Shown one piece after another: positions 29,071-56,207 of a DNA stretch of 64,000 nt. Each line of letters opens with the position of its first letter. Position 1 is the first letter of the stretch. The notes beneath the pieces are model-generated. The model was not told the origin of the DNA and searched no databases. It saw nothing but the letters and a program-made list of their open reading frames with translations. This DNA comes from a virus (taxonomy: Duplodnaviria > Caudoviricetes), in the IMG/VR virus record IMGVR_UViG_3300042260_000337; one strand, written 5' to 3'. The translations under genes were made by a program, and so were the position numbers.

Positions 29071-30396
29071 CTATTTCGCGTAGTAAGCGTGTTCGCCAAA
29101 CGGCGGAACGATACGGTCATTGCCATGGATGACAAAGAGAGTGTCGCAGTAGTGTTCGTCACCCCAAGACCCGTAAGGATATCCATCGGTGAACATGACA
29201 AACTTTTGAGGTTGGATGTCATTTTCTTCCATGAACGTCCAGTTGCACACGAAGTCAGTGCCGCCGCAACCAATAATCTGGTAGTCATTGATTTCATCGG
29301 CATTCATTGGGGTAAACTCTTTGAACGATTCTTCGTATACACGAGTGTCAAAGGTCCATACCCGAAGACGGAAATCTTGGAACTGGGTCATAATTCCTTG
29401 AATTTCGCCCATGAAATCTTGCAGCATATCATGCGAGATAGAACCAGAAACGTCCAGACCAATGCAAACATCGACCATTTGGTCAGGGTCTTGTGCAGGA
29501 AGATAGATTCCCATGGAACGAGACTTTTTGGATTGGCGCATCCAAGTGTAGTCATTTTTGAGGCAGCTTTGAACACTCAGGTTCAGAAGCTCCCGCCAAT
29601 CCATCTTGGGTTCAGTCATGGACTGAATCAGACGACGAATTTCACCGGGGGTATTGCCAGCACCAGCCGATTGAGCGGCTTGCAGAACCGCTTGCCGCAT
29701 CTGGTCTTTGATAGCCTTGGCTTCTTCTTTGGTGACCTTGATTGGACCCTTGCGACCAGTCGGATCGTTTTGCATCTTGCCATCTTGGCCATCGCCATCC
29801 GTGCCTTCGTTGCCGAACAGGTGCATATCAAGAGTCTGCTTGCCTTTGCCTTCACCAGATTCTTTCAGTTTCTGGTAAATTTCTTCGGTATACATACCGT
29901 GATATTTACGGTCATACAGCGCAGATTTCGGCATCTTACCGATGTTGCTTTCAACGCAACCTTGGTTGACTTTGTAGTCAGCAGCAACGTTCCAGAGTTG
30001 TGGGTCACGGTCGGATTCAGCATAGTCAAACAGACGACCACCCTCGCCGCAGTGCGAGTAGACACAGTGAAGAACTTCGTGACCAACCACAAAGTCAATT
30101 TCTTCTGGCGTCAACGTGCGGAAGAAGTTGGGGTTGTAATAGAAATGCTTGCCATCCACCGCAGCCGTAGGACACCAGCCCTCGGTTTCAACCAGTTTCA
30201 GACGAGTTGCCAAGGTGCCGAAGAACGGATGCTTGATAAGCATACGAACACGACCAGAAACGATCATTTCTTTGACCGCAGCATCGGTATATTCAAATAC
30301 TACGGGTTCAGGAGAGTCTTTGTCAATCTCAATGCCGTTCTGTTCAAGAACATCATCAAGAAGATCGTCAAGCGACTTGGCGGGTTGATTCGACAT
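29071..30396 (-). CDS. Zn-metallopeptidase-like + VWA domain protein (partner of MoxR-like ATPase)
   Basis: PTAAVDG, HEVLH (HExxH), LDVSGSI (MIDAS DxSxS), GGTDF, FTDG; start refined to ATG 30396. Confidence 0.88.
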   Translation of the reverse strand: MSNQPAKSLDDLLDDVLEQNGIEIDKDSPEPVVFEYTDAAVKEMIVSGRVRMLIKHPFFGTLATRLKLVETEGWCPTAAVDGKHFYYNPNFFRTLTPEEIDFVVGHEVLHCVYSHCGEGGRLFDYAESDRDPQLWNVAADYKVNQGCVESNIGKMPKSALYDRKYHGMYTEEIYQKLKESGEGKGKQTLDMHLFGNEGTDGDGQDGKMQNDPTGRKGPIKVTKEEAKAIKDQMRQAVLQAAQSAGAGNTPGEIRRLIQSMTEPKMDWRELLNLSVQSCLKNDYTWMRQSKKSRSMGIYLPAQDPDQMVDVCIGLDVSGSISHDMLQDFMGEIQGIMTQFQDFRLRVWTFDTRVYEESFKEFTPMNADEINDYQIIGCGGTDFVCNWTFMEENDIQPQKFVMFTDGYPYGSWGDEHYCDTLFVIHGNDRIVPPFGEHAYYAK

Positions 30397-30426
30397 GGGT
30401 ATAACCTTTCTTGTTTCTACTCTAAC

Positions 30427-30456
30427 ACTATACCCCATATGGGCACGAAGAGTCAA
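30427..30456 (-). promoter_or_regulatory. Sigma70-like early promoter
   Basis: TTGACT, 18-nt spacer, TATAGT. Confidence 0.6.
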
Positions 30457-30497
30457 GTTTTATTTGTAAGTTACTAAGTAAAGTAACTTAGAAAAGA

Positions 30498-30525: not shown

Positions 30526-31653
30526 TCAGGCATTGTGGGCTTCAATGATCAGCTTGCCATACTTCTTGAAGAAGTCACCGATGCAAGGAACCTTGCGGGG
30601 TTCAAGCGGCAGCTTGTAGACCTTGAGTGCCGTGCGACCGCCAAGGACAGTCATTTCGGTATCAAAGTTGTCCATCATGAAGCGGAAGAAGTTTTCTGCC
30701 ATTTCATAGAGTTTGTCCATGTCGTTCTTGCCGTTCTTGTCAACGAACTCTTTCAGTTCGTAGCAGAGCGAAGCAGTCAGCGAGAACATCGCGGAGATTT
30801 CGTTGCTACCCTTGGGCAGATGCTTCACACGACCTTCGAGAATGTCGGTCGGGTTGGGCATAGCCTGTGCCATCTGGCGGTGAGCCATGAACTTGGTTGC
30901 AACACCATCGCCAACCGTGCCAGCAAGAAGATCGTGCAGACGATGGTTGCTGATGTTTTCGTTTTCTTTGGGCAGAAGGTCCGAAACGAAGGTCCAAGAA
31001 CGGGGGGTCGAGAACGACCGCGATGCCGTGCGAGGGTCAAAGTTGAACAGGTCCATCTTGTTGGAAGTCAGGTAGCCGATGACTTCAGGGTGGATGCGAT
31101 GTTCCATCGCCCAAGTCTGCCAGTCTTCAAAGTCCACAGTGATTTCAAGGTGGACGAAACGGTTGGCGAGAGGCGAAGGCATACGATATGCAACACCACG
31201 GTCGCTTTCACGGTTACCAGCAGCAACGATAAGAACGTTGTCAGGCAGCTTATACGAACCAAGGCGGCGGTTCAGAATAAGTTGGTAGGCAGCAGCTTGC
31301 ACCGACTGAGGCGCTTGGTTCATTTCGTCAAGGAACAGAACCACATTTTCATACTGGGATGCCAGTTCTTCATCGGGAAGGTCGGAAGGTTCCGCCCATT
31401 CCATCTTGCCCGTCACTTCATTGAAGTGAGGAATACCGCGAAGGTCGGTCGGCTCCATCAGAGCCAGACGCAAGTCGATCATGTAACCGTTGATTTCTTG
31501 CGTGATGCTTTCAACGATTTCGGACTTGCCGACACCGGGCGGACCCCAGATGAACACGGGGCGCTTGCGGCGGAACGCATACGCGATTTCAGCTTTCAGA
31601 TCGCTCGGCTTGGTGAGACGAACTTCCATATCTGCGGTAGAAACTTTAGCCAT
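30526..31653 (-). CDS. MoxR-like AAA+ ATPase
   Basis: GPPGVGKS (Walker A), LFLDE (Walker B), AAGN, PLANRF, TPRSW. Confidence 0.93.
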   Translation of the reverse strand: MAKVSTADMEVRLTKPSDLKAEIAYAFRRKRPVFIWGPPGVGKSEIVESITQEINGYMIDLRLALMEPTDLRGIPHFNEVTGKMEWAEPSDLPDEELASQYENVVLFLDEMNQAPQSVQAAAYQLILNRRLGSYKLPDNVLIVAAGNRESDRGVAYRMPSPLANRFVHLEITVDFEDWQTWAMEHRIHPEVIGYLTSNKMDLFNFDPRTASRSFSTPRSWTFVSDLLPKENENISNHRLHDLLAGTVGDGVATKFMAHRQMAQAMPNPTDILEGRVKHLPKGSNEISAMFSLTASLCYELKEFVDKNGKNDMDKLYEMAENFFRFMMDNFDTEMTVLGGRTALKVYKLPLEPRKVPCIGDFFKKYGKLIIEAHNA

Positions 31654-31694
31654 TGGTGAGAACCTTTCTGTTTTGTCTCGGTGATTACTGTTTG

Positions 31695-33221: not shown

Positions 33222-34223
33222 TTACCGAACTGGATATGGCTTACTTAGGATTCTCGCCATTTCATCAGGGGCTTTGGCGAGGTTTTGCAAATCCCATTCA
33301 CCACACCATTTCAAGAAATGAATGCCAACACTCTTGTTTTCCTTGACTACGGACAGTTGGTTGATTGTGTTGATGAACTCATTACGAAGGTCTTCAGGCT
33401 GACTGGTCAAATCAATAAGAGTTTTGTTACGCTCGTAATCTGCTTTGACAGTATGCTCAACTCCGTTATGGTCAGTCCAACGTTGAAGCATAAAGTTGTT
33501 CCAGTTGAAACCGCCAGTGTCACGGTCAGAGAACGCTTCTTGAATACCAATCTTGTTCTTGCTTCCCTTTAGACGTGCGCCTGGGTATGCAGAGAAAATG
33601 TTGTCACTTGTATCGCCACGAATACATTTCTCAAACAGTAGCCATTCTGGGTCGGGTGCAACCAGTTTCTCCTTTGTCTTTTTATCAACAATCGGAGTCA
33701 TGTTTTTATCATCTTTGAAGAAACCTTCTGTAGTGATAATACGATTTTGCACACCATCATAGATTTTTACATTCGGGGCAAGCAACTGCATATAGTCGCT
33801 ATCGCTTGAAATAATGATATGGTTGTCGGTTGGATGGCTTTCAATGAACAACGCAATCATGTCATCTGCTTCTGCATTTTGATGGCGAAGCAAGGTTACG
33901 TTTGTTTTTTGGTCAAGAAACTGAATGAGGCTGTCGTATGCCTCAAACATAATCTTATCTTCTTCTTGCTCACGAAGGCTTTTTGCTTCTTGGGCTACTT
34001 TGCGATGTGCTTTGTATGGGGTATAAAACTGTTTGCGCCAGCTTTTCCCCTCCAAGCAAAACACTGCGTGGTCTGCGTTGAACTTGTTATAGCACATCTT
34101 CACACTATTCATCATAATGTGAAATGCCATACCAATTTTCATATCAATGTCGGCATTTCTCATCGCAACATGTTTTGCACGATGATACATGTTGAAGCTA
34201 TCAACCAAGATAAAAGTAGTCAT
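33222..34223 (-). CDS. rnh: T4-like RNase H / 5'-3' flap exonuclease
   Basis: ILVDSFN, WRKQFY..YKAHR, EADD, SSDSDYMQL, RGDTSDNI. Confidence 0.9.
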   Translation of the reverse strand: MTTFILVDSFNMYHRAKHVAMRNADIDMKIGMAFHIMMNSVKMCYNKFNADHAVFCLEGKSWRKQFYTPYKAHRKVAQEAKSLREQEEDKIMFEAYDSLIQFLDQKTNVTLLRHQNAEADDMIALFIESHPTDNHIIISSDSDYMQLLAPNVKIYDGVQNRIITTEGFFKDDKNMTPIVDKKTKEKLVAPDPEWLLFEKCIRGDTSDNIFSAYPGARLKGSKNKIGIQEAFSDRDTGGFNWNNFMLQRWTDHNGVEHTVKADYERNKTLIDLTSQPEDLRNEFINTINQLSVVKENKSVGIHFLKWCGEWDLQNLAKAPDEMARILSKPYPVR

Positions 34224-34849: not shown

Positions 34850-35938
34850 TTACCACCCTATGCGTTCCCAAGGAACGTCTTTGTCACCGAAATGCCCATA
34901 TATACAATTCTTGCTGTATTCAGTGAAGTTGAACAAATCAAACCTATCAATAATTCCTTTTGGTGATAGGTCAATCTCTTTGCGAATGAACCTTTCAATA
35001 GATGCGTTGTGACCATTACTGCTTACATAAATGGATGTTGGCTGTTTTACACCAATTGCATACGACAACTGAATTTGGCACCAATCAGCCATGTCATCTG
35101 CCACAACGTTCTTTGCCAACCACCGCGCCATATATGCTGCTGAACGGTCTACCTTTGTCGGGTCTTTGCCTGAAAACGCACCGCCACCATGTGGAGCAAA
35201 TCCACCATATGTGTCCACGATAATCTTGCGCCCAGTCACACCAGCATCACCGTCTGGACCGCCGATAACGAAGTTACCAGTTGGGTTCAAGTGCCATACG
35301 GTTTTGTCATCAATAAGGTCTGCGCCCAATGCTCTCATGGCTGCAAGTTTAGCCATGTTTCTTGCCAACTCTACATTCCCTTCGGTATGTTGAGTGCTGA
35401 TAACTATTTGGTCAATTCTTTTGACCAATCCACCTTCATATTGAACACTTACTTGCGACTTTGCATCTGGACCAAGAGCATTTCCTTGTAGGCGAAGTTC
35501 TTTTAGTTCTTTTAGAATTTGGTGTGAATAGTAGATGGGTGCTGGAAGATACGATGAGTTATGGTTGGATGCGTAACCGAACATAATGCCTTGGTCGCCC
35601 GCACCGAAGTCATCAGTTCCAAGGGCGATATCTGCGCTTTGATTGTGAATACGGTTTATGATTTCAAGGTTTTTCCAGTTGAACCCATCTTGCTCATACC
35701 CGATTTCTTTTACTTTGTTTCTTACGATTTCGTTAATTTCATCGTTTGACACGTTGAAGTTTTTTACTTCACCAGCCAATGCAACGAAGTTTGTTGTAAC
35801 CATAGTTTCGATGGCGACACGTGTAGATGAATCGCCCACCTTTAATCCAGCGTCAACAAGTGCATCACTAATTTGGTCTGCTACTTTATCTGGATGACCA
35901 TCGCTTACACTTTCACTCGTAAAGATGTAGTTATTCAT
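34850..35938 (-). CDS. metK: S-adenosylmethionine synthetase
   Basis: FTSESVSDGHPDKVADQISDA, GAGDQG, GGPDGDAGVTGRKIIVDTYGG, GGAFSGKDPTKVDRSAAY. Confidence 0.98.
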   Translation of the reverse strand: MNNYIFTSESVSDGHPDKVADQISDALVDAGLKVGDSSTRVAIETMVTTNFVALAGEVKNFNVSNDEINEIVRNKVKEIGYEQDGFNWKNLEIINRIHNQSADIALGTDDFGAGDQGIMFGYASNHNSSYLPAPIYYSHQILKELKELRLQGNALGPDAKSQVSVQYEGGLVKRIDQIVISTQHTEGNVELARNMAKLAAMRALGADLIDDKTVWHLNPTGNFVIGGPDGDAGVTGRKIIVDTYGGFAPHGGGAFSGKDPTKVDRSAAYMARWLAKNVVADDMADWCQIQLSYAIGVKQPTSIYVSSNGHNASIERFIRKEIDLSPKGIIDRFDLFNFTEYSKNCIYGHFGDKDVPWERIGW

Positions 35939-37192: not shown

Positions 37193-37960
37193 TCAGTTAC
37201 CTGTTTTTGCGGGAAGAATGTAATCGTATACGCCAAGTCCAGAGTCAACTTGAATCATCATCGCCCCTTGGTCGGAGAACTTGATGGTCATGTTGCTGGT
37301 ATCGGCAAGACGAAGAATAGTGTTTACTGTGCGCAATGGGTATGACCAAGCAGATTTCAACTCACCGGACACGTTGAGTGCAAATGGCAAGTCAACCTTG
37401 TCTGTTCCGTTGCTACCGATAGAGAAGATAAGATTTCCATTTACTTTCTTGACCGTAAATAGAGAGTCATTTCCACCCAGAACACCATCAAAATAGCGAA
37501 GGTCAGTTACAGCTTTTTGAGTTGGCATAAACTCAATGTCCCACTTCGCGCCCTTGAAGTTCGCTGTTTTGATTTGGTCATCAACCACTTCACTGCGAAT
37601 GAGACGATAGTTTGATTCAAACCCACCGTTCATTTTGAAAGAAATGCTTGCTGGTGATGCTTCGCCATTTCTTTCTTCTTTGTTGACAACAATATCTGCG
37701 TCAACTTTCTTACCCTCAGTGTCTTCGCCCGAATAGTTCAGGTAGCCCTGAAGGACAGAAAGACGCCCGAATCCAACCTTACCAGTGAGTGCATCCACCT
37801 TGTTGTGTAGTTTGCCTTTGAGAACCACTGAACGATTGTCGTCAAGTGCGTCAATCTTTGTTTCGTCACCTTCTGTGGTGACTTTCACCGCTTGGATAAT
37901 ACCAAGTGAATGAGTGTGTTTTACTATGTCTTTTAGAATATCACGCATATTGTGCTCCAT
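37193..37960 (-). CDS. Sliding clamp / DNA polymerase processivity factor (gp45-like)
   Basis: About 250 aa, two-domain beta-rich pattern, C-terminal GLGVYDYILPA; two genes downstream of the DNA polymerase. Confidence 0.7.
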   Translation of the reverse strand: MEHNMRDILKDIVKHTHSLGIIQAVKVTTEGDETKIDALDDNRSVVLKGKLHNKVDALTGKVGFGRLSVLQGYLNYSGEDTEGKKVDADIVVNKEERNGEASPASISFKMNGGFESNYRLIRSEVVDDQIKTANFKGAKWDIEFMPTQKAVTDLRYFDGVLGGNDSLFTVKKVNGNLIFSIGSNGTDKVDLPFALNVSGELKSAWSYPLRTVNTILRLADTSNMTIKFSDQGAMMIQVDSGLGVYDYILPAKTGN

Positions 37961-37978
37961 TTATATTTCCTCAGTATA

Positions 37979-39406
37979 TCAAAATTCAAACAGGTTGTCA
38001 ACTTCTTTGACTTCGGTTTTTACAACTTCATCAAACATTTCATCTTCTGGATTTGCAAATTCAATTCGTGCCTTTGCAATCTCCATATAATCAGGATCAA
38101 GTTCAATGCCAACGAACTTGAAACCTTCTAACATCGCACCCTTGCCAGTTGAACCAGAACCCATAAATGGGTCAAGAACAGTCCCGCCTTTTGGAGTAAC
38201 CATGCGAACCAAATAACGCATCAAATCAGTTGGTTTTACGGTTGGGTGATTGTTTTTCTTTGTTGGTGGATTGACCCAATCCTTTTCTTCGCATAGACAA
38301 GTGTGTGCTTCAAGAGAAGAAGCCCCGCACTTGGAACATATGCGGCGAATACCATTGCCTTTACCACCAATGGATTTAGCTTCAAAATCTTCTAAACCTT
38401 CATTTCGGTCTTTCTTAGATGTTTTGGCGCAATAAAAGAACCGTGCCGCAGAAGCATCGTCATTGTAACTATCCCACGAAACGCGATTGTATTCTCCATA
38501 GCAGTTTGTGTTTTCATCGCCAGTTTTGCTTGGTTCTTTTCCTGATACGCTACCGCCAGCTTTTGTATTTGGGAATAGAGAAACGACTTCCTCGCTACCA
38601 TCATGAATAAAGTTGGCGGGAAACCTTCCTTTCGGTGATGATGTATTTGGTGTTCCTTCAAACTTTCCATACGCATTGACTGCCATTCCATCAGTTTTCC
38701 AAGAACCATTTCCGCCGAGACGAGGATCATCAACTTCTGGATTCGTTGGAATGCGACTTTCATCAATGTTGATACCACCAGTTCCATACTTCAACACATT
38801 TGCAGCAACTGTATTTTCTTCCAATGGTTTTCTTGCAACAGTGATTGGTTCTAATGCGGGCTTTAGCGCAGTCCCCCAACCTTCCCATTGCTTTGCTTCG
38901 TCGGTAGCAGGAGCGGTAATACGAATAACATTCTTTGCACTCTTGTCTTCTGAGTTACCAGTATCTGCATTTGGCCTGAAACCGTGCTCTGCATTCGTCT
39001 TGGAAATGTGTGCCATTCCACCAGAGTTTGTTTTCGTCTCTGAAATAACTTCACGCTCTGCACCAGCCGATTTGTCAATGGCTTTACTAATATCCAATGA
39101 CTTTGGAAATCCACTTCCGTAAACCCATGCAATCATATCGCGGATTTCAAATCCCGCATCCTCAATACGAACTGCCATACGATGTTGAGTCCGAGTGCCA
39201 GCAAACGCAAGTAGATACCCACCCGGTTTCAATACCCGTAGAGCTTCTTCCCATATCTCTTGGGATGGAACGTCATAGTCCCACTTCTTTCCCATGAAAG
39301 AAAGCCCATATGGCGGGTCAGTTACAATGCTGTCCACGCTATTATCTGGAAGTGTTTTTAGCACTTCCAGACAATTTCCATTATATAATGTATAGTTTTT
39401 TTCCAT
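37979..39406 (-). CDS. DNA amino-methyltransferase (N6-A/N4-C, beta class)
   Basis: VTDPPY (motif IV) N-terminal, HPTVKP and VLDPFMGSGSTG (motif I) C-terminal; start refined to ATG 39406; ends DNLFEF. Confidence 0.93.
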   Translation of the reverse strand: MEKNYTLYNGNCLEVLKTLPDNSVDSIVTDPPYGLSFMGKKWDYDVPSQEIWEEALRVLKPGGYLLAFAGTRTQHRMAVRIEDAGFEIRDMIAWVYGSGFPKSLDISKAIDKSAGAEREVISETKTNSGGMAHISKTNAEHGFRPNADTGNSEDKSAKNVIRITAPATDEAKQWEGWGTALKPALEPITVARKPLEENTVAANVLKYGTGGINIDESRIPTNPEVDDPRLGGNGSWKTDGMAVNAYGKFEGTPNTSSPKGRFPANFIHDGSEEVVSLFPNTKAGGSVSGKEPSKTGDENTNCYGEYNRVSWDSYNDDASAARFFYCAKTSKKDRNEGLEDFEAKSIGGKGNGIRRICSKCGASSLEAHTCLCEEKDWVNPPTKKNNHPTVKPTDLMRYLVRMVTPKGGTVLDPFMGSGSTGKGAMLEGFKFVGIELDPDYMEIAKARIEFANPEDEMFDEVVKTEVKEVDNLFEF

Positions 39407-39407
39407 A

Positions 39408-42149
39408 TTAGAACTCGAATAGATTGTCAAATGTTTCGGAGTTGTTGGTGTCGTTCAAATCCCAGTTTAGAACGCCAATCAGGTTGTTTATTTTCTTAGT
39501 AATAATTGTAAATTCCATTTCGTTGTTGTCAAATGGTAATTCCTGAAACCACATTGGCAACTTCAACTCATCAATGGGATACGCGATACTTGTAATCCCC
39601 ATAGGATTAGACTTCAACTTACAAACGATAGTTTTCATGCCATCAGTGATCTCCATACTATAGTTGTCACTGTTCATTCTACGAAGTCGGTTCCAGTTGA
39701 TTGCTGCAAGAGCATGACCTACTGCACACTTTCCTGTTTTCTCAAACACTTTTGTGTGATGAGTTAGGTTGTTTACTCGTTTCGGAGTTCCCTTTTGCCA
39801 AGCTGGCATCTTGCGAAACTCTTTTTTGAACTGCTTGATCATATCAATAACTTCTTTCTGTTCTGCGTCAGTTAGAAGTTTCATCAGAACGTCCTTCAAG
39901 AACTCCTGCATGTAGTCTGGGGTGTCAGAACGCTTTAGGTCAAGGCCCATCGCTTTTACTTTGCCAGGAAGCCCATCAATGTCCCTGCGCTTTCCATCGT
40001 CATCAAAAATAAGCATAGCATATCGCTTCTTCTTGATGAATAGCCCAGTTGTAGCGGCGTTTTCACGTCCTGCTTTGATGATTTCGCCCTGTTTCCTTGG
40101 CACATGGAAGAATAACTTCATAAAGTCGGGGAAACTTTCGTTCACCTGTTTTGCGATTTCGTCATACAACTCCATCACAATCTCTTTACTCCAAGCGATT
40201 TCTCCACTATCAATTCTATCTTTGTATACTGGATACATAGAGAAGTAGATAGAGTCGGTATCGCCATAGATAATAGAATCACCCTTGTAATCATATGTTC
40301 CCGCAATAACTTCGTTGGTTTTGCTACCCATATGGCGAGTGATACAACGTCCAGTGAGAGTAGTAGATTGACCAATCCGTTTATCATAGAAGCGGCAACC
40401 TGGGTTTAGAATAGCACCATACAGTGAGTTCAAGTTGATCTTCTTCACCAACTGACGTTTGTCCCAGAAAGCAACTTCTTTGCCTTCTCCAGCATCACGT
40501 GCATCTTTCATCTTGGCTTGAAGTTGCTTACGTTCACTATACCATCTTTCCAATAGACTTGGAATAATTCCTTGAACGTCTTGTCTGAAAACTGTCCCGT
40601 TTGCTGATAGCGCCCAGTTCAATTCGCTAGTATTGAAAATCAAATCATATACTTCTGCCCCAGTAAGATTGGAACTACTTCCATCTTCCATATCAAGGAA
40701 CAACGGAACCACCTTATCTCTTTCGTTTACATAACGAAATTCTTCTGATGAGAATGTATCTTCCCATGCCTGTGGAGCACCAAAACTTTTTCCGACAGTT
40801 CTTTTACCTTCAATAATACGGCTAGTAATCATTTCTTCGGTGTAGTTCTGACGAAGTTGAGCAACAATCGTTTCTGGCGACATATTCAATGACCGTAGAA
40901 CCGATGGATACAGAGAGTTCAAGTCAATACCAGAAATCCATCGCTGAATACCTGTCTTGGGCTGCGCCACAAACGCACCAGCAGCTTTTTCTTTTGCAAG
41001 AAACTCTGCAAGTTCGTCGTCATCCATGTCCGCTGGGTCGTCAGCATCTTCTTCGTTCCAGTCTCTTGCTTTGCGGTCAGGAACATGCATATCGCGGCGA
41101 TGTGCTTCATTGATGATTGCCTGTTCAGTAACGGCAACCGCACCCATTGTAGTTTTGATAAGAACTGTATTATCGTGGGCAATTTCATTCGCCAAGTCAA
41201 TAAACCGAAGTTTCTTATCTAAGTCTGCAATAAGCATAACGTCTTCTCTGTTATACTCAATGAACTTGTAGAAATCTTCGTTATATAATTGGTCTAGTGT
41301 TCCTTCATATGCAACCTTTTTACGCCCAAGTTCATATTCTGAAATAGCATCCAACGAGTATGAGTGCATTTCATGATATGTATACTTACGGTAAAGTTCA
41401 AGATAGTCCAAGTGAACCCGCCCCACCAGTTCATAGGTGAGTTGGTCTTTGCCATACTTCTTGACATATTTTTCTTTTGGCTGCACATCCCATAGACATA
41501 GACGTTTGATGTATTCTTTGCCGAGAACTTGAATAATTCTACGGACAGTATAAGGAATATCGTAACCTTCTGAGTTCCATCCGCTGATGATATCTGCATC
41601 ATCTACAAGAGATAGAAAATCTTTGAGCATTTCCTTTTCACTGCGATACCACTTTGTATTGTCAAACCGTGTGCAGATTTGTTCTGCTTCTTCATCTGAC
41701 ATACCTTTTGGTGGAATGGCCAATGTAATTAGTTCGCCTATCCAGTCAAGGTAAACTGTGATGGCGGTAATTGGCATAAATGCTTCTTCGGTTGACGAGA
41801 ACCCACGTTCCTTGTCAAAGTCAACTTCAATGTCGCAAAATGCAGTATGCAGAACGGGAGAATCTACCCCGTTGTAATTTAGAGATAGGCATTGGTTCTC
41901 TGGCTTGATATCGCTTTCAAACAGCTTTTTTCCAGAGTTAATCTTTAGTTCTTTATGGAAATCTTTAGTTGTCTTGCATCGGATTTGGCGAATTTTATCA
42001 CCAAAGATACTACGATGCTGGCCGTTTTGGTCCTTTACATAGAATGTTCTAATAGCGGGATAGTCTTTGAATACCCGCTTTCCGTTTAACCGTTCAACAA
42101 CACGAACCAAGTCGTGTTTTTTATCGTAATATGCATCAACGTATGACAA
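39408..42149 (-). CDS. Family B DNA polymerase (gp43-like)
   Basis: Exo motifs DIE, GWNS..YD, YN..D; pol motifs DLNSLYPS, KINLNSLYG, YGDTDS, KKRY. TTG start; no intein seen; ends DNLFEF. Confidence 0.97.
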   Translation of the reverse strand: MSYVDAYYDKKHDLVRVVERLNGKRVFKDYPAIRTFYVKDQNGQHRSIFGDKIRQIRCKTTKDFHKELKINSGKKLFESDIKPENQCLSLNYNGVDSPVLHTAFCDIEVDFDKERGFSSTEEAFMPITAITVYLDWIGELITLAIPPKGMSDEEAEQICTRFDNTKWYRSEKEMLKDFLSLVDDADIISGWNSEGYDIPYTVRRIIQVLGKEYIKRLCLWDVQPKEKYVKKYGKDQLTYELVGRVHLDYLELYRKYTYHEMHSYSLDAISEYELGRKKVAYEGTLDQLYNEDFYKFIEYNREDVMLIADLDKKLRFIDLANEIAHDNTVLIKTTMGAVAVTEQAIINEAHRRDMHVPDRKARDWNEEDADDPADMDDDELAEFLAKEKAAGAFVAQPKTGIQRWISGIDLNSLYPSVLRSLNMSPETIVAQLRQNYTEEMITSRIIEGKRTVGKSFGAPQAWEDTFSSEEFRYVNERDKVVPLFLDMEDGSSSNLTGAEVYDLIFNTSELNWALSANGTVFRQDVQGIIPSLLERWYSERKQLQAKMKDARDAGEGKEVAFWDKRQLVKKINLNSLYGAILNPGCRFYDKRIGQSTTLTGRCITRHMGSKTNEVIAGTYDYKGDSIIYGDTDSIYFSMYPVYKDRIDSGEIAWSKEIVMELYDEIAKQVNESFPDFMKLFFHVPRKQGEIIKAGRENAATTGLFIKKKRYAMLIFDDDGKRRDIDGLPGKVKAMGLDLKRSDTPDYMQEFLKDVLMKLLTDAEQKEVIDMIKQFKKEFRKMPAWQKGTPKRVNNLTHHTKVFEKTGKCAVGHALAAINWNRLRRMNSDNYSMEITDGMKTIVCKLKSNPMGITSIAYPIDELKLPMWFQELPFDNNEMEFTIITKKINNLIGVLNWDLNDTNNSETFDNLFEF

Positions 42150-42158: not shown

Positions 42159-42746
42159 TTATTTTATTCCTGAAATGGTAAATCTGGTAAGCACATTCAA
42201 CTTCATTGCGCTTTCATATGATATTGAAGATAATGGGTATTTATTTTTAATCTCATCAACACTATAGCATACATTGGTATGATCTTCAATAGACAAGTTA
42301 TTGGATTGTATCAGGCATTGTTTTCCCGCTGGTATTCTTTCAAACCATTCTGAAGTCATATGCTCACTGCTTAGATTTATGATAGTATCATAGTGTTCCA
42401 ACCCATCAAACGTCAATACATCTTCTGTAAAATGTGTTCCATAGTTATGGAACTTTGAGTTGAGCCGCTTGCTTATAACATTACATCTTGGATCAATGTC
42501 TATTTCATCTATGATGAAAGTAGGATAACGGTGACATATATAGTGTGTTAGAAATCCAAACCATGAGCCGATATATAGAACTTTTCCTCCATGGTTTGGA
42601 AGATGCGATAATGCAGTGATTGCTTGATTTTTGCTATGAATTTGATTTGTATGAAATGCATCTCTGACTTCTTCCATAGTTGTCAGAGATGCAATGTTTT
42701 CTTCATACAATATATCAAAGAATGCTGATATGTATGTTTCTATCAT
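42159..42746 (-). CDS. Class I SAM-dependent methyltransferase
   Basis: VLYIGSWFG, EIDID, YDTIINLSSEHM, LIQSNN. Confidence 0.75.
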   Translation of the reverse strand: MIETYISAFFDILYEENIASLTTMEEVRDAFHTNQIHSKNQAITALSHLPNHGGKVLYIGSWFGFLTHYICHRYPTFIIDEIDIDPRCNVISKRLNSKFHNYGTHFTEDVLTFDGLEHYDTIINLSSEHMTSEWFERIPAGKQCLIQSNNLSIEDHTNVCYSVDEIKNKYPLSSISYESAMKLNVLTRFTISGIK

Positions 42747-43323: not shown

Positions 43324-44715
43324 TTACCATTTTCTGCATGACCAGTAACGTGCTTTTGTTCGTGGGCCTGGGTTGTCGCAATTGTGTCTTGCTCTGAACG
43401 ACTTTCTGCGTTCTGGGTTTGACTTCTTGATTTTCATGTCTGGGTCACCGAAGTTTACCTTTTTTACATTTCCAGTGCTTGGGTCTTTGACATAGACCTT
43501 GAATTTTTTTACATCGCCGCGCATTGGCTTACCGAGTGGGACGTTTCTGCCTTGATACTCTGCTTCATCCAACTTTTCATCTTCGTTGAACCACATAACA
43601 CCATATGCTTCAAAGAAATCGTTGCCTTCATATGTTTCTTCATACATAGATTCTTTTGCCGCGCCACCTGATGGGAATCGGGTTTGTATCCCTTGGTTTG
43701 AACTTGTTTGCTTGTCCATGTATGATTTGGCTTTTTGCATACCAGTGTTTAGACCTTTCGCGCCCATGACCGCAGCATTTCCTATATCTTTTGCCAATGG
43801 CGAAGTTAGTGCTCTTCCTGCCCCACTTGCCGCTCTTGCTATTGCTGGCCCTGCTGCTGCTGCCCCTGCTCTTACTGCTCCCGCAATGGCACCTCCTGCG
43901 GCTCCAAGTGCTGGCAGAAACTCTTTTAGATTTTCGTGCTTTGACTTTATGGAATCGAGCATTTCTTGGTATTGGTCGGCCATCATTCGGTGATGACGCT
44001 GTGTGATGGGGTCTTTCACCATCTTTGCTTTTTTGAGTCTATCATCAATCATCATCTGTAAACGGCTGATACGATGTGAAGTATTTCCTTCGTCTATTTT
44101 ACTTTCTGGAACGCAGTTGGGGACTTCTTTACTGCCTTTTTTTTTAGTTCCGACCATTTTGTAACCTGACCAGCATGGGTCTTTGGCACCGCCCTTCATT
44201 TTTCCAGCTTCTTTTATCTTAGACTCACCAATAGTATCTTCGTCGGCCATTGGACTGTTCATGACGGCATTATAGTCATCCATTTCATTATCTGACGGCA
44301 TTTCGTCACCCATTGGTAGGTCCATTTGCATACCGCCACCCATTGGGTCATTTAGTTGTTCAACATCGCCACCAAGTTCATCGCCCATGCCACCCATGCC
44401 ACCCATGTCACCGCCCATGTCTGGACCTTCAAAATCGTCAAATCCGCCCATTTCGTCGCCCATAGCTGGTTCGCTTGATTGTGCGTTTAGGTCAAGAACA
44501 TACATACGTGAGGTTAGTGCATCTGACATGCGCTGATATGCTGCATATGCGCTGTTATGCATTTTAGAGAACTGTAGCGACAAATCATGAATGGCGTCTC
44601 TGGCGTTCTTGCCGCTTTGAATTTCAGATGCAAGTTGTTCAGTTGTGCGATTTAGATAATCTTCAAACTCATCATTGGAGATTACAAAATTTTCAAAAAG
44701 TTGTCTAAGTTTCAT
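43324..44715 (-). CDS. Modular late protein (acidic Met/Gly-rich linker; CWxGY...PNCV module; C-terminal DUF6321-like domain)
   Basis: MKLRQLFE N-terminus; GGDMGGMGGMGDE low complexity; KKVNFGD...RRKSFRARHNC...ARYWSC. Confidence 0.7.
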   Translation of the reverse strand: MKLRQLFENFVISNDEFEDYLNRTTEQLASEIQSGKNARDAIHDLSLQFSKMHNSAYAAYQRMSDALTSRMYVLDLNAQSSEPAMGDEMGGFDDFEGPDMGGDMGGMGGMGDELGGDVEQLNDPMGGGMQMDLPMGDEMPSDNEMDDYNAVMNSPMADEDTIGESKIKEAGKMKGGAKDPCWSGYKMVGTKKKGSKEVPNCVPESKIDEGNTSHRISRLQMMIDDRLKKAKMVKDPITQRHHRMMADQYQEMLDSIKSKHENLKEFLPALGAAGGAIAGAVRAGAAAAGPAIARAASGAGRALTSPLAKDIGNAAVMGAKGLNTGMQKAKSYMDKQTSSNQGIQTRFPSGGAAKESMYEETYEGNDFFEAYGVMWFNEDEKLDEAEYQGRNVPLGKPMRGDVKKFKVYVKDPSTGNVKKVNFGDPDMKIKKSNPERRKSFRARHNCDNPGPRTKARYWSCRKW

Positions 44716-44953: not shown

Positions 44954-47900
44954 TTATGCAGCTTTGGTATTTAGGTTTCTACCAAACTCAAGTTTGCGTT
45001 TGATACTACTCAATACTTCAAAGAATAGTTCTTTTACCGCATTTAGATTTTCAAAGAAACTAAAGAAGGTAAGACCTGGAACTTTTTCAGTAGCAACATT
45101 CATCACTGTTGAAATGAAAGTTCCGAATTGGTCGGCAAAGTTTGATTTGACCACGTTTGCCAATATTGTTTTTACACTAGATAGATTCTGGACCATGTAT
45201 TTGGCAAACGCATATACGCCAAGACTTCCCAAGAAGCCGATAATGCCGCCACGCTTGAATATTGCAGATGCGAATGTAATGATATTCTGCACCATATCCC
45301 TCAGTGTGGTAGCGACTGTTTCGTTATTGACAAGGCCAATCGCAGTGTTCAGAACCGATGATAGTTGCTTCAACATTCCTCTTGACGATTTCACCATTTG
45401 GGTGTATGATTTCTCAAAATATGTTTCATCCATAAGAATATCTTTGATAAGAACAGCGGCGTCTTTCATGGTAAGAATGGTAGCCGATAGGTCATCAATC
45501 GTATTTTGTGCTTTACTTCCCAACCATTTTGTGACGGAAACCAACATTGCTTCATGTAGTTGTGCTTCTGTAAGCATCTTGCGACCTGTATCGCCATACA
45601 TTTCTCTCAAATTGAATGCTGGCTTTCCATCTTTTGAAACTTTGTTTCCAAACTTTGCGGCTTGTTTTTTGATTTCGTTTGGGCCAACATCAATCGTAGT
45701 GTTGACGCCTTTTACGATTTTACCAACCCCGCCAGTTTCATGAATATCCTTGAATGTAGTTTGAGGGAAGTTGATAAGCATACTCAATCCCTCCTTGGCT
45801 GGAAGGCTCATACGGAATGCAGTGATTTTGTGTATCTTTGCATTTTTAGCAGCAAGCCAACGATGATGCCCATCCAACACATAGTTGTCAGAACTGATTA
45901 TGATTGGCTTGTTCATCTTTCCGTTTGTCATTGCAGCTTCTACGCCCTTGTCGCTGAACTCTGACTGAGTTGACATTAGGTCTGCTGGATCAACTATTTC
46001 TTTTTTTATTTTGCCACCATTATCGTAGATATAACGAAACAAATCTTCATAATGCTTTTCGTCAATTTGCGGCATATGGCGTCTTGGAACACCAAGTGTG
46101 TCGGCAGGATGAGGTTTTACGATTTTTAGTTCATTTAGTTCGCCCTCACTATGAACTTCTGGGTGCTCTGGTGAACCACCAATCTCTTTGTATTCCGCAC
46201 CGAACTTATCAAGAATTCTTTTCAAACGAGCAACTTGTTCTTGATTGGCAAGGGTGACTACCATATCTGAGTCACTTTGCCCGAACTCATGTGGGTCTTG
46301 CTGGTTCAATCTTGCAAAATGCTGACCTAGCTTATACCAATCAAAATCACCTTTTGTATCAATCACCAATGTATTTTGTGGCATAGTAAGCAAGTCGTGT
46401 TGGTATCCAGTGGGGTCATCTTCAACTGCGTCTTCATTGAATGCAACATCGGTTGCCTTCTTTGCGATTTCACCTTGAGGATGTTTTGGGTTGATAGTTA
46501 CAACTTCTCCGTTCATCAACTCTGAGATATTTGCAGTTTTACCAATTGTATCTAACAGTTGATGCAGCTTGTCATTTGCATCATACCCATTAGTTTCATA
46601 GTTTGCCTTGCCTCTGACTTCGGTTCTCTTTCCAGAATCGGTATTCAGAATATGTAACACATACAGGTCATCATCACGTTCAAGTTGTAGCTTGTATGAT
46701 TCATTCATATGCTTGAAATACTGAACCTGACGCTCTCTTTTTAGAGCGCCAGCTTTAGTTGGGTAAGTTCCAAGGTTCTTTTTGCCATCTTTAGAGCGAA
46801 GTTGAAATCCGCCCTTCACTTTTTTTATAGTTTCATTTACTGATTCTGGCGTTGGTGTTTTTGCTGGAACTGCCAGTAGCTTGCTGAATGTTTTCTTTGG
46901 CTTTTTTGGTAACACTGCCAGATATTCTTTTCTCAACTCTTCTTTTTTAGGAGTAAGTTCGCGAATGTGGGATTGAAGTTCTTTTATTTTTTCTTCATTT
47001 GGGTCTGCACGATTGACTTCTGCACGAAGTTTTGTAGTATAGTCATCAATCATGTTTTGAATGCTGTTTATTTCATTCTTGATTTCTGCAACGTTTTCGT
47101 CTCTTTCGTCATCATATATTGGAGCATCACTATAAAGTAGGTTATCGCCTTCGACATGACTATACTTCTCTACACCATTTTCTTTGTATGCTGCAAATAC
47201 CGTTACGCTTGGGTCTTTTGATAACGCAACCCATATTTTTCTTCCGCCCGCTGATTGCATAGAGTCTGCCTGAAGGAATAGACCCACCTTTGTAACCAAG
47301 TGGGCATAGAATTTTGGCATCAATCCTTTTCCTTGAAGTGCAGGATCAAGTGCTGCGGCATGAATAACGCAAGGCGATTTTGATGAACTACGAGTCATAT
47401 GGACCAAGGCATGCATATTGGTTTCTTTGTCGCATAATAGCGCGTTTAGTTCACGTCCTTCTTTTGCTATAAAGACACGAAACTTACCCATTGGTTCTAC
47501 TTCGGTAAATCTACTGTAATATTTTTTGATTGGAAAGCCCCACATATAGGATTTCCAATCTTTGGAAACTTTCACAGTTTCTATTTCTTCGCCTAACTTT
47601 TTCTGTATCTCGCCAGTTTCATCATCAACCGAATATTGACTACGGAAGAACGCACTTCCGTCATCAGTCATATTTGACACTGAAATCTTTTTACTAGGAA
47701 ACTCTTTGAATAGGTCATCAACCAACATTTTGGCATAACCTTTTCTGCGGCTATCATCTGCGGTAATAACATGAGAGATATAAACCTCGTCATCTACGAT
47801 GCTTACATCAACGCCAGCTTTGACTACGCCATCAACCATCAGATACTTGGTTCCGAATGTTTCGCCTTTGTAGTGGTCAGAAACGGACACTGGGTTTATT

Positions 47901-50542
47901 TTTATATTCCCAGTGTTCTCTGTCATTTTTTCATTTTTTTTTACTGACTCTGTTTTTGTTACCTTTGGTTTATCATACATTGGGTCATGAGCGGCATGAG
48001 CAAATAGATACACATCCTCGTGTTCTTCATCCCAAGTTTGTTTGCTTTGAGCGTCCATCTTTTCGTCTCTTAGCTTTTTCTCCATTGTTCGCAAGTCAGC
48101 ATATTCTTTTTTGAGACGAGCAAGATTGGCAGTGTCCGTTTTATCCATGGAACTATAATCATCCCATACTTCACGTATCTTATCTTCTACAAACGCAAGT
48201 TCTCTTTCAATCTCTTTGACTTCGTTTTTCAACTCAGTGTCATAGGTATGGAAACCACTACGCAGGAAGTCATCTACATCGTTGTCAATATCCGATAGCT
48301 CCCAGTTTCCGCCATCATTTTTTGCTGCGTATACGGTAATTCCTGGGATTTTTGACAGAGCAATCCATATCTTCTTTCCGCCTTGCGATTGAAGATCATC
48401 ACTGCGAATAACCCAACCCTTCTTACATAGGAACGCATATAGCTTAGGCGCAATGCCTTTTCCTTGCCAAGATGGGTGAATGATAGTTGCCTTTGCAATC
48501 CAGTATTCCATGCCTTCTCTGTTACCATAGTCGCGCTCAAATTCAATCAGTGATATTGGTTTGCGATCCAGTGCAGAGTTTTCATTCTTGTCAGTAACCA
48601 AAAATACTTTGCGAGAGTTGGCTCCGTATTGTTCTAATACTACATCATATCCACCAAGTCTGCCTATCTTTCTTACATACTTTGTGTTCTTGCCTTCCCA
48701 ATCAGTATTGCCAATCCATCCCCAACTTTTTGGTAGGTCAACGGAAGAAACCTCATTGATAGATTCGTTTTTTGGTTTCTTGTCAGTGGTAGCAAGAAGA
48801 TATATCAGTTCATTCTTTTGGCGACTTAGGCGGTCATCATTGTAAATTTCGTCACGTTCTTTTGTAAGTTTGCGAATATGGTTATCCAAGAAATCCAAGT
48901 CAGATTGCATCTTTTCCAACTGCTTTGGGTCGGATACTTTTTCTGATTGTGCTAGTAACACGTTATATTGAGAACGTGCAGCTTTGATTTCGTTAGTATA
49001 CTCATCTACGCCTTCATTGCGATAAATTGGGAAATCACCAGCCAAGACTTCATCGCCATCAACTGCGGTATAATCCATGTTGCCATGTGCATCTTCTTTT
49101 GCTGCATACACAGTTATGCCAGGAATTTTTGCCAACTCTGCCCAAATCTTCATGCCGCCTTTTGATTGGTCGGTATCTGAACGAAGGAAGAAACCTTTCT
49201 TTACAAGGTATGCATAAATTTTTGGCATAAGTTTTTTGCCTCTTAGCGCCTTGCCAAGAGCCGCACCTTTTACTTGCCATAGTGTTACTGAATCTTCGGT
49301 GTAGTTTTGAGTAAGTAGTAGTTCACCTTCAATAATAACTGGGTCACTGCTTTCTTTTGATAGTTGTTCGGTGGTTATGAATATTGAACGATTCATAACG
49401 CCTATTTTCTTTTGATATAGATTGATTGGTCCAAGAGTTCCGATAAGAGATACGCCAGAATACATAAGCAAGTCTTTGCCTATGTTTCCTGGGTTCCAAT
49501 CACTTTCAACACCAACCTGTGTAATACGGTCTTCTTTTATGCCATAACGTTCTTTATACATTCTTTCAAGTTGACGCCCATTCAATCCTTGAAACGCACG
49601 AGCAATATCAAATGCGTATCCACCAATACTTTGCTTTCTTGGGTCACTTGTTACCAATCTGTGCAATGCTTGTAGAGCAGAATCATAAAAGTTTTGACTT
49701 GCTTTTGCTGCAAGTTTCGCCTGAAGTTCGTCTCTACTTATGGCTTCATTTGTAATTGCCTCTTCTTCGTCACTAGTATCGCCAGTAATAGAATATGTTT
49801 TTCCTTTTACTGTGAACTCTTTTTTTCCAGCTTTTATTGCATTCATTCTTGCATCAGTGAACGGATTGGACTCGCCCATCATTTTATCGGCAAGTTTTAC
49901 ACCCGCACGGTCTGCCAACTTTTTCAACTTGAATAGATTTTTACCAGTCTTGAACGCAGCTTTCAACGTTGCAACGGTTGTTTGCCCTACCACTGCCATT
50001 ACAATCAAATCAGTTAGAGGTGGGATTGAACCCAAGTCTTCGCTTAGTTCTGCCTCTCCAACCAATCTTCCTTTATATGGATGTGGTTGTGATCCAGTTC
50101 TTGATGGTTTTGAGTTCTTTGGTAATGGTTCTGAACCACGAACCTGATCTACGCTTTCAACTGGAAACTCTCTGTCTGGTGACTTGAAGTTCTTTTTTCT
50201 CATAACAGTTTTTGCAACCAAATCTAACTGATTAGTTTTTCTGTTCCAATTCAACACAAATGGAATGTTTACATCAGATTCCAAATCCTTCATAATGGCT
50301 TCTTTGTCTGGTCCCATTTGCGCGATTGGTTTGCCCCAACGCTTATATTCCTTGGCAAACAAACGCCCTAGTTCTCGTATTGTGATCTGCTTTCCATTTC
50401 TTTCGTCGTTTACGCGGTCAAGAAAGTGATGAGTAAACCCGACATCAATGCCAAGTTTGTTGAATACATTATCAATATGAACTTCAAGTGCATCCAGTGC
50501 AGATTTTGTTACTTTACCATCGATATCTGTTATGTTTACCAT
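44954..50542 (-). CDS. 1862-aa multidomain protein with four GNAT-like acetyltransferase domains and a ParB/Srx-like domain
   Basis: Motif A copies LRGKKLMPKIY, WQGKGIAPKLY, RRKGYA and LQGKGLMPKFY; SSDNYVLDGHHRW; modules separated by short linkers ending in hydrophobic-x-E. Confidence 0.75.
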   Translation of the reverse strand: MVNITDIDGKVTKSALDALEVHIDNVFNKLGIDVGFTHHFLDRVNDERNGKQITIRELGRLFAKEYKRWGKPIAQMGPDKEAIMKDLESDVNIPFVLNWNRKTNQLDLVAKTVMRKKNFKSPDREFPVESVDQVRGSEPLPKNSKPSRTGSQPHPYKGRLVGEAELSEDLGSIPPLTDLIVMAVVGQTTVATLKAAFKTGKNLFKLKKLADRAGVKLADKMMGESNPFTDARMNAIKAGKKEFTVKGKTYSITGDTSDEEEAITNEAISRDELQAKLAAKASQNFYDSALQALHRLVTSDPRKQSIGGYAFDIARAFQGLNGRQLERMYKERYGIKEDRITQVGVESDWNPGNIGKDLLMYSGVSLIGTLGPINLYQKKIGVMNRSIFITTEQLSKESSDPVIIEGELLLTQNYTEDSVTLWQVKGAALGKALRGKKLMPKIYAYLVKKGFFLRSDTDQSKGGMKIWAELAKIPGITVYAAKEDAHGNMDYTAVDGDEVLAGDFPIYRNEGVDEYTNEIKAARSQYNVLLAQSEKVSDPKQLEKMQSDLDFLDNHIRKLTKERDEIYNDDRLSRQKNELIYLLATTDKKPKNESINEVSSVDLPKSWGWIGNTDWEGKNTKYVRKIGRLGGYDVVLEQYGANSRKVFLVTDKNENSALDRKPISLIEFERDYGNREGMEYWIAKATIIHPSWQGKGIAPKLYAFLCKKGWVIRSDDLQSQGGKKIWIALSKIPGITVYAAKNDGGNWELSDIDNDVDDFLRSGFHTYDTELKNEVKEIERELAFVEDKIREVWDDYSSMDKTDTANLARLKKEYADLRTMEKKLRDEKMDAQSKQTWDEEHEDVYLFAHAAHDPMYDKPKVTKTESVKKNEKMTENTGNIKINPVSVSDHYKGETFGTKYLMVDGVVKAGVDVSIVDDEVYISHVITADDSRRKGYAKMLVDDLFKEFPSKKISVSNMTDDGSAFFRSQYSVDDETGEIQKKLGEEIETVKVSKDWKSYMWGFPIKKYYSRFTEVEPMGKFRVFIAKEGRELNALLCDKETNMHALVHMTRSSSKSPCVIHAAALDPALQGKGLMPKFYAHLVTKVGLFLQADSMQSAGGRKIWVALSKDPSVTVFAAYKENGVEKYSHVEGDNLLYSDAPIYDDERDENVAEIKNEINSIQNMIDDYTTKLRAEVNRADPNEEKIKELQSHIRELTPKKEELRKEYLAVLPKKPKKTFSKLLAVPAKTPTPESVNETIKKVKGGFQLRSKDGKKNLGTYPTKAGALKRERQVQYFKHMNESYKLQLERDDDLYVLHILNTDSGKRTEVRGKANYETNGYDANDKLHQLLDTIGKTANISELMNGEVVTINPKHPQGEIAKKATDVAFNEDAVEDDPTGYQHDLLTMPQNTLVIDTKGDFDWYKLGQHFARLNQQDPHEFGQSDSDMVVTLANQEQVARLKRILDKFGAEYKEIGGSPEHPEVHSEGELNELKIVKPHPADTLGVPRRHMPQIDEKHYEDLFRYIYDNGGKIKKEIVDPADLMSTQSEFSDKGVEAAMTNGKMNKPIIISSDNYVLDGHHRWLAAKNAKIHKITAFRMSLPAKEGLSMLINFPQTTFKDIHETGGVGKIVKGVNTTIDVGPNEIKKQAAKFGNKVSKDGKPAFNLREMYGDTGRKMLTEAQLHEAMLVSVTKWLGSKAQNTIDDLSATILTMKDAAVLIKDILMDETYFEKSYTQMVKSSRGMLKQLSSVLNTAIGLVNNETVATTLRDMVQNIITFASAIFKRGGIIGFLGSLGVYAFAKYMVQNLSSVKTILANVVKSNFADQFGTFISTVMNVATEKVPGLTFFSFFENLNAVKELFFEVLSSIKRKLEFGRNLNTKAA

Positions 50543-55217: not shown

Positions 55218-55309
55218 TGGCGGAAGTGGTAGGATTTGAACCCACGGAACGCTCTCACGTTCGTCCGCTTTCAAGGCGGATGCAATCAGCCAGACTCTGC
55301 CACACTTCC
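55218..55309 (-). tRNA. trnS: tRNA-Ser(UGA)
   Basis: GGAAGTG acceptor, CT-TGA-AA loop, long variable arm, GGTTCAAATCC, encoded CCA. Confidence 0.95.
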
Positions 55310-55765: not shown

Positions 55766-55790
55766 ACTGGAAATCTCCCTTTGAATTTCT

Positions 55791-55838
55791 AGAGTAGATG
55801 GGAACGGCAATTCCGCGATCTACACTATTATTTATCAA
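55791..55838 (-). promoter_or_regulatory. Late promoter plus 5' hairpin of HNH gene
   Basis: TTGATAAATAATAGT, then GTAGAT...GGAA-TTGCCG-TTCC...ATCTAC stem before RBS GGGAG. Confidence 0.5.
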
Positions 55839-56113: not shown

Positions 56114-56190
56114 TGGTAGCGCATACGGGTTTCGAACCCGTTTCTCCGCCTTGAAAGGGCAGCGACCTTCGCCAAGAAGTCCAATGCGCC
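56114..56190 (-). tRNA. trnE: tRNA-Glu(UUC)
   Basis: GGCGCAT acceptor, CT-TTC-AA loop, CCA. Confidence 0.93.
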
Positions 56191-56207
56191 AAAAAATTTA
56201 CGATGCT

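Follow-up and report, generated by a model that had tools for sequence, protein, structure and literature searches.

A DNA methyltransferase of an uncultured jumbo phage shares its C-terminal peptide with the phage DNA polymerase and is a candidate client of the phage sliding clamp

The 64,000-nucleotide (nt) stretch of virus record IMGVR_UViG_3300042260_000337 analysed here (hereinafter referred to as the window) encodes a family B DNA polymerase (PolB), a DNA methyltransferase (MTase) and a predicted sliding clamp in this order, and the two enzymes end in the same hexapeptide, DNLFEF. Comparison with related loci suggests that the MTase tail docks on the clamp and in this way couples methylation to replication, a reading to which we assign a probability of roughly 0.7. 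A previous sequence-only reading had proposed a clamp-tethered, replication-coupled MTase at this locus, and that interpretation as a whole is partly supported. The viral record to which the window belongs is 202.7 kb long, was judged to be about 56% complete and has approximately 295 putative genes. Close relatives were found on contigs of about 350 kb, and thus the source of the window is an uncultured jumbo phage. Loci and contigs of relatives used for comparison were numbered L001 to L131 (L001 is Pseudomonas phage PAC2 and L004 is Atu_ph07).

The shared tail in the polymerase-methyltransferase-clamp locus

All genes of the locus are on the minus strand of the window. Its features are listed below, in order of position.

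37193..37960, minus strand: predicted PCNA-fold sliding clamp, 255 amino acids (aa), phrog_12062 (AlphaFold2 and Foldseek)
37973..38001, minus strand: sigma70-like promoter of the clamp gene, lying over the MTase tail codons (TTGACA at 38001-37996, 17-nt spacer, TG-extended TATACT at 37978-37973; 11 of 12 consensus positions)
37979..39406, minus strand: beta-class N6/N4 DNA methyltransferase, 475 aa (PF01555, 115.9 bits against a cut-off of 26.7; phrog_67, 6.7e-82)
37982..38038, minus strand: disordered acidic linker and tail of the MTase (residues 457-475, by AlphaFold2 confidence), ending in DNLFEF at 37982-37999
38650..39080, minus strand: two hypervariable segments of the MTase (~38940-39080 and ~38650-38760), probably the target-recognition region (drop in DNA identity)
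39408..42149, minus strand: family B DNA polymerase, T4/RB69 gp43-like, 913 aa (PF00136, 6.8e-34; PF03104, 1e-16; phrog_262, 1.5e-194)
39411..39428, minus strand: C-terminal hexapeptide DNLFEF of the polymerase, presumed clamp-binding tail (read directly from the sequence)

The gene order and the shared hexapeptide had been the starting points of the earlier proposal, and both were read directly from the open reading frames (ORFs). PolB ends in ...SETFDNLFEF (tail codons GAC AAT CTA TTC GAG TTC TAA) and the MTase in ...KEVDNLFEF (GAC AAC CTG TTT GAA TTT TGA); the start codon of the MTase (ATG at 39406) lies one base past the polymerase stop, and the clamp ORF starts 18 nt past the MTase stop. 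The polymerase and the MTase were the only pair with the same last five or six residues among the putative genes of the record, and any common C-terminal hexapeptide occurred in only 0.1% of composition-matched random tail sets. The tail codons differ at five of six positions, as had been noted, and all five differences are synonymous. Because the silent share of single-base changes in these six codons is about 17% by our estimate, five silent changes with no replacement are unlikely under neutrality. From the codon differences it had been concluded that the match is maintained at the protein level. This probably stands for LFEF, but is not needed for V-D-N and for the conservation seen in the DNA, which can be explained by the overlapping promoter of the clamp gene.

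The MTase was assigned to the beta class of N6-adenine/N4-cytosine enzymes by a PF01555 profile score above the cut-off and by the right order of motifs, with the catalytic TDPPYG near residue 30 in the N-terminal part and FMGSGSTG near residue 415 in the C-terminal part; it is the only PF01555 gene in the record. The tail is preceded by an acidic linker, NPEDEMFDEVVKTEVKEV. In the AlphaFold2 model, the final helix extends to about residue 456, and residues 457-475 have no secondary structure and a predicted local distance difference test score (pLDDT) below 50, compared with more than 90 in the catalytic core, which agrees with the earlier placement of the tail on an acidic linker outside the catalytic fold. 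The linker varied in sequence and length across 12 orthologues, and the D, L, F and F of the tail were invariant. Like a gp43-type peptide, the tail forms the very end of the protein, on a flexible extension beyond the folded domain, and it has a hydrophobic/aromatic core with acidic neighbours in common with the resident polymerase. It is not a canonical PCNA-interacting protein (PIP) box, Q-x-x-(L/I/M)-x-x-(F/Y)-(F/Y), since KEVDNLFEF has no Gln and has Glu between the two Phe residues, nor is it the bacterial beta-clamp motif, Q-(aliphatic)-x-(L/M)-(F/L), as Q-L is missing. The corresponding tail of T4-like relatives, TLE(E/D)FF, is nearer to a PIP box and is also without Gln.

Within the MTase gene, the two hypervariable segments showed 23-50% DNA identity to L040 and L041, compared with 80-90% in the rest of the gene, and the confidence of the AlphaFold2 model was low in this part. 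This looks like swapping of the target-recognition region, which would change methylation specificity among close relatives, and the presence of two such segments suggests that target specificity changes fast.

The polymerase matched the structures of RB69 gp43 at E ~1e-58, in addition to its domain and phrog_262 matches, and its earlier description as a T4/RB69-type PolB was thereby confirmed. T4-type PolB holds its clamp via a C-terminal peptide, and residues 883-903 of RB69 gp43 have been co-crystallised with gp45 (PDB 1B8H; PMC3012046, PMC3201878). By homology with the RB69/T4 gp43 tail, we infer that the tail of the window polymerase binds the phage clamp (PMC3012046, PMC3201878). The full-length alignment of the window polymerase to RB69 gp43 ends before the tail, so the two tails are equated by their position and from the literature; a search with the last 150 residues of the window polymerase alone returned no match in the PDB. 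The polymerases of all relatives with this clamp family (PAC2, Atu_ph07, Phosso, Vibrio 2.275.O, 121Q and 32 IMG/VR loci) end in F-x-x-L-F-x-(F/W/L) or a close variant; tails in phages with the phrog_12062 clamp included FDSLFGW, DLFDW, NDLFTF, ADLFGF and F(T/Q/D/E)(N/S)LF(D/E)(F/L), and the most distant relative, 121Q, has the looser GFFTW. In PAC2 and Atu_ph07, two separate ORFs make up the polymerase gene, with the clamp-type tail on the C-terminal piece, and a Hef-like homing endonuclease gene lies between the polymerase halves in PAC2. In the window, a second promoter-like site was found within the 3' end of the polymerase gene (39505-39532, minus strand; TTGACA, 16 nt, TACAAT, 11 of 12 matches), about 100 nt upstream of the MTase start, and the MTase may thus have its own promoter.

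The MTase gene had been said to neighbour a clamp gene, and the AlphaFold2 model of the 255-aa product, compared with the PDB using Foldseek, gave the same answer. The model had a mean pLDDT of 96.1 and a predicted template modelling (TM) score of 0.92, and it gave at least 500 PDB matches at E ≤0.001, the top ones being PCNA chains (probability 1.00, TM 0.65-0.71), with two topologically repeated beta-alpha-beta domains per subunit matching solved clamps. The sequence belongs to no curated clamp family: no Pfam family matched, and a profile of 101 homologues gave only chance-level PDB sequence matches. The 255-aa protein is assigned as a sliding clamp on the basis of its predicted fold and its synteny with the polymerase. 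Its family, phrog_12062, has 546 representatives, and homologues were encoded a short distance downstream of the polymerase, either next to it or with one or two small genes in between, in PA5oct-like Pseudomonas phages, Rak2/121Q-like phages, Atu_ph07, Phosso, a Vibrio jumbo phage and 32 IMG/VR contigs. The record also encodes a clamp loader, so that a cognate clamp and loader are predicted in the same genome.

G000:C1:78875-79807: AAA+ RFC/delta'-like clamp loader (PF13177 (DNA_pol3_delta2), PF00004, Rad17 and RFC-lid matches)

No homologue of the gp62-type small clamp-loader subunit (PF16790) was found in the ~56% of the genome that the record covers.

Tails in related phages and competing explanations

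The MTases that adjoin polymerase genes were surveyed in relatives, and conservation of the tail in orthologues, on which the earlier proposal depended, was borne out. The tail was kept in every syntenic polymerase-MTase-clamp relative fetched (L039, L040, L041, L128, L129 and L131) and persisted in orthologues whose MTase is 58-80% identical to that of the window. Moreover, the MTase tail co-varied with the polymerase tail in other lineages, as follows.

Window, L040, L128, L131: polymerase LFEF; MTase LFEF
L130: polymerase LFDF; MTase LFDF
L042 (Tara; polymerase 56% identical to that of the window): polymerase FNDLFDFE; MTase FNDLFDFE
T4-like marine phages (polymerase ~27% identical): polymerase (A/V)TLEDFF(G/A/T); MTase (S/I)TLE(E/D)FF, then A, K or nothing
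L056: polymerase SLKSFFS; MTase TLNDFFS

The MTase sits directly behind the polymerase in these loci, except in L056, where a GIY-YIG-like gene lies in between. In the T4-like lineage, the polymerase is closest to cyanophage gp43 and the MTase directly behind it is 64-72% identical to that of the window. The MTase cores of the jumbo and T4-like lineages share 64-72% identity and their polymerases only about 27%; the MTase gene must hence have been transferred horizontally, with its tail now matching the resident polymerase. In L130, the PF01555 MTase kept VDNLFDF with other codons (GAT AAC TTA TTT GAT TTT TAA), with no clamp promoter behind it and another gene directly next. Overall, (L/M/F)-F was present in the last eight residues of 62% of 152 dereplicated MTase homologues versus 4.7% of 892 neighbouring ORFs, percentages that are uncorrected for shared ancestry. 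On short phage contigs, family members have QLDLFGTA, QLPLFGGA or NQLALF as their C-terminus, similar to the bacterial beta-clamp motif, and the homologous MTase of phiPsal1 ends in EESLF. The 359-aa GIY-YIG-like protein between the polymerase and the MTase of L056 (L056:1853-2959, an IMG/VR contig) ends in SSLMEFFS, the tail type of its neighbours, and clamp-like tails are therefore perhaps not restricted to methyltransferases.

Tails of this type were also found on other MTases. In relatives without the PF01555 enzyme, the polymerase-clamp interval often contained a small NPPY protein of phrog_799 ('DNA methyltransferase', E 1e-31), and MTases of phrog_799 end in FDNFFDL (L031), FDDLFE (L034) and FDNLFDT (L130). 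In the GenBank phage C48C1 (Kyanoviridae), the polymerase ends in ATLEDFFG and the product of the next gene, a Dam-like MTase, in STLDAFFG. The 164-kb genome of coliphage RB49 contains just two D-L-F-D-I-stop sites, of which one terminates gene 43 and the other RB49p143. RB49p143, an annotated DNA methyltransferase gene flanked by baseplate genes 8 and 9, is 57 kb away from gene 43. Judged from these sequences, the presence of polymerase-like tails on three unrelated MTase families is convergence.

The codons of the MTase tail double as the predicted promoter of the clamp gene. The same promoter lies ahead of the clamp gene in all relatives (L006-L037 and L128-L131), whichever ORF is upstream; the polymerase itself stops before it in L016-L020, and other ORFs reading into it end in IDIGID, IDIDSK or TFDKHFNM. 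The last eight codons of the upstream ORF are partly dictated by the promoter, which yields tails of the form x-(V/I/F)-D-x. In the MTase frame, the -35 hexamer can only be read as (V/I/F)-D-(N/S/K/I), and the TG of the extended -10 is part of the TGA stop. The tail stretch is 97-100% identical in DNA to L040 and L041, compared with about 80-90% for most of the flanking polymerase, MTase and clamp sequence. DNA-level conservation of the tail was considered as evidence for selection and was rejected, since the overlapping promoter accounts for it. As the promoter explains V-D-N, only LFEF needs selection on the peptide. LFEF is encoded in the promoter spacer, for which we know of no sequence requirement. 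The overlap provides an example of coding and regulatory constraints stacked in the last codons of a gene.

Several observations weigh against a clamp-docking role. Because the tail codons are also the clamp promoter, neither V/I-D-N/S nor the 97-100% DNA conservation needs a peptide function. In L129, the LFEF codons have remained identical in DNA even though the clamp is only 60% identical, a hint of exchange or of some constraint at the nucleotide level. The polymerase and MTase tails of L042 have the same DNA sequence (24 of 24 nt), and those of L049 almost the same; matching tails can thus be made without selection, by gene conversion or by duplication at insertion. The two tails of L041 differ (LFEF versus LFDF). 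Many members of the MTase family have no tail at all, e.g., Mycobacterium phage Nala gp101 and Klebsiella phage e270.1. Further, a scan of the ~295 ORFs of the record, which covers ~56% of the genome, for other tail-bearing proteins such as a ligase, nuclease or transcription factors gave no convincing candidate, so no wider set of clamp clients is visible there.

The strongest competing explanation, which we nevertheless regard as unlikely, is an insertion scar or concerted evolution, in which the polymerase end was duplicated or gene-converted and the MTase tail is a passenger without a role at the clamp. It fits the identical or nearly identical tails of L042 and L049, the position of the MTase directly behind the polymerase in most of the lineages examined, where the stop codon of one gene abuts or overlaps the start codon of the other, and the nature of the polymerase-clamp interval as a hot spot with different genes in different relatives. 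A mere passenger is, on the other hand, difficult to reconcile with five synonymous and no non-synonymous differences between the window copies, with the persistence of the tail in diverged orthologues, with its presence on the RB49 MTase far from gene 43 and on the MTase of L038 (ending in TLEDFFSD), which has no polymerase as neighbour, or with its occurrence in three unrelated MTase families. For the same reasons, a copied tail appears to have been kept by selection; the MTase tail probably arose by copying of the polymerase 3' end and was retained thereafter.

Still less probable is that the likeness to the polymerase tail is a by-product of the promoter, the last eight MTase codons being TTGACA and a T-rich spacer read in frame under a constraint on the DNA. 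The 11/12 match to a sigma70-type promoter at 38001-37973, its conservation upstream of the clamp gene in all relatives and the x-(I/F)-D-x ends of other ORFs (e.g., IDIGID and TFDKHFNM) are in accordance with this explanation. In addition, the V/I-D-N/S variation mostly keeps TTGACA (IDS of L128 corresponds to TTGACT, a 5/6 match), and a -35 signal is annotated inside the gp43 tail codons of RB49. A promoter by-product does not explain why the spacer varies freely between lineages (IGID, IDSK, GYEI) and yet always reads LF(E/D)F behind this MTase, why L130, L042 and most T4-like loci checked have the tail without such a promoter behind it, or why no usable -10 follows the polymerase tail itself.

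The least probable alternative, docking of both proteins on another shared partner (SSB, the clamp loader, a protease or chaperone, or a replication compartment), gains from the assignment of the clamp family by structure only and is countered by the way tail type follows clamp type, namely LF-x-F where the clamp is the PCNA-like phrog_12062 protein, L-x-x-FF in T4-like phages with a homologue of RB69 gp43, whose tail-clamp contact is solved (PMC3012046), and beta-clamp-like motifs (QLDLF, QLPLF) in family members on short contigs.

Under the clamp-docking interpretation, the short linear motif on the flexible acidic linker of the MTase would copy the clamp-docking C-terminus of the phage's own PolB. 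The RFC-like loader would place the PCNA-like phage clamp on DNA, and the MTase tail would dock in the peptide pocket of the clamp. Clamps left on, or travelling with, new DNA would recruit the MTase, so that methylation of phage DNA would take place at the fork or shortly behind it, and the clamp-bound MTase may scan DNA by sliding. The cofactor would be supplied by the phage S-adenosylmethionine (SAM) synthetase encoded nearby, which would fit a heavy methylation load. The presumed benefit would be fast protection from host restriction or processive scanning.

Surrounding genes and other features of the window

The SAM synthetase gene is located three kilobases downstream, within the polymerase/MTase/clamp cluster, and is syntenic in L039, L040, L041 and L128.

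34850..35938, minus strand: S-adenosylmethionine synthetase, MetK (PF00438, PF02772 and PF02773 all match, E down to 7.8e-57)

A 5'-3' exonuclease gene (33222-34223) belongs to the same cluster as the polymerase, MTase, clamp and MetK genes, and MetK is syntenic in all close relatives. Directly upstream of the polymerase gene, a 195-aa ORF (42159-42746, minus strand) contains a Rossmann-like VLYIGSWFG stretch that suggests a SAM-dependent methyltransferase; it had no match in Pfam or PHROG. Further upstream, a 463-aa protein (43324-44715, minus strand) has a long Gly/Met/Asp-rich low-complexity stretch and no family match, and its position is kept in relatives (444-462 aa). A 1862-aa protein (44954-50542, minus strand) contains several repeated internal modules with a recurring motif, KGL/IxPKxYAxL, and a ParB_N-like region near its C-terminal part; the version in relatives has 1935 aa and faint acetyltransferase matches.

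A cluster of 17 tRNA genes is located at 55218-63090 (minus strand). It includes a tRNA of the amber-suppressor type with anticodon CUA (60890-60966), labelled 'Pyl' by ARAGORN, and the TAG stop was found in only 26 of the approximately 295 putative genes of the record. The sign of the AT skew flips at about 26 kb in the window, where gene orientation switches. The G+C content rises to 0.50 at 30-32 kb compared with about 0.40 elsewhere in the window, and long ORFs are open on both strands in this G+C-rich part (29071-30477 and 30526-31659).

Significance and comparison with known clamp clients

Phage orphan methyltransferases are usually treated as free enzymes that need to find every site before host restriction does its work. 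With a clamp tether, the timely protection of a genome that is about 350 kb long and replicates fast would be explained. Bacteria and phages would then have a counterpart to the coupling of DNMT1 with PCNA, and the clients of phage clamps, perhaps also of bacterial ones, would include a new class. If the tether holds, clamp clients in metagenomic viruses could also be recognised by tail matching, from sequence only, and the polymerases, clamps and accessory enzymes of these viruses could be paired in the same way. As a more general and tentative proposal, whose chances we put slightly below even, MTases of at least three unrelated phage families would be clients of whichever clamp replicates the genome (PCNA-like, gp45-type or, for small phages with QLxLF-like tails, the host beta clamp), and the docking peptide would be re-fitted after each horizontal transfer, often by copying the last codons of the resident polymerase. 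If this were true, replication-coupled methylation would be a widespread, so far undescribed anti-restriction layer, and MTase tails could predict which clamp a phage uses.

A literature search of incomplete coverage turned up no account of a clamp-binding tail on a phage or bacterial MTase. A 2022 review of sliding clamps mentions Dnmt1 as the only methyltransferase, and the word stem 'methyl' is absent from a 2024 review of beta-clamp partners (PMC11139829). The MTase as a putative new class of clamp client is well supported by the comparison of loci.

The closest known parallels are the tails of T4/RB69 gp43, gp33 and gp55, the last two of which carry in T4 a C-terminal motif similar to that of gp43 (PMC9690074). 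As in the window, these are short hydrophobic and acidic C-terminal peptides on a flexible extension, common to several proteins of one phage, with a presumed fit to a pocket of a trimeric clamp (PMC3012046, PMC9690074), and the window polymerase is a homologue of gp43. In contrast to the gp45 clients, the client in the window is a DNA methyltransferase, which is unlisted in the reviews consulted as a client of gp45 or of the beta clamp; the clamp is of another sequence family than gp45 (phrog_12062, no Pfam match, fold closest to PCNA); and the motif is L-F-x-F rather than LDFL or LFDMFDF.

The bacterial beta-clamp binding motif QL(S/D)LF reportedly goes back to Dalrymple in 2001. That motif (reviewed in PMC11139829) and the window tail are both short linear motifs at the C-terminus with a Leu-Phe core, whereas the window tail is without Gln and agrees with the phage polymerase instead of the host consensus. 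The promoter-bounded mobile cassettes of T4-type phages resemble the window in having an accessory MTase gene in a hot spot between conserved genes and an early-type promoter over the ORF end; unlike these cassettes, the MTase of the window lineage is a backbone gene (80-90% DNA identity along most of the gene) and has not moved recently.

DNMT1 and PCNA form a system similar to that proposed here, in that an MTase is tethered to a replication clamp and new DNA is methylated (PMC9690074). DNMT1 methylates cytosine at C5, prefers hemimethylated DNA and has an internal PIP box in its N-terminal part, whereas the window MTase is a beta-class amino-methyltransferase of a bacterial virus with a C-terminal tail apparently copied from the polymerase; the two couplings would have independent origins.

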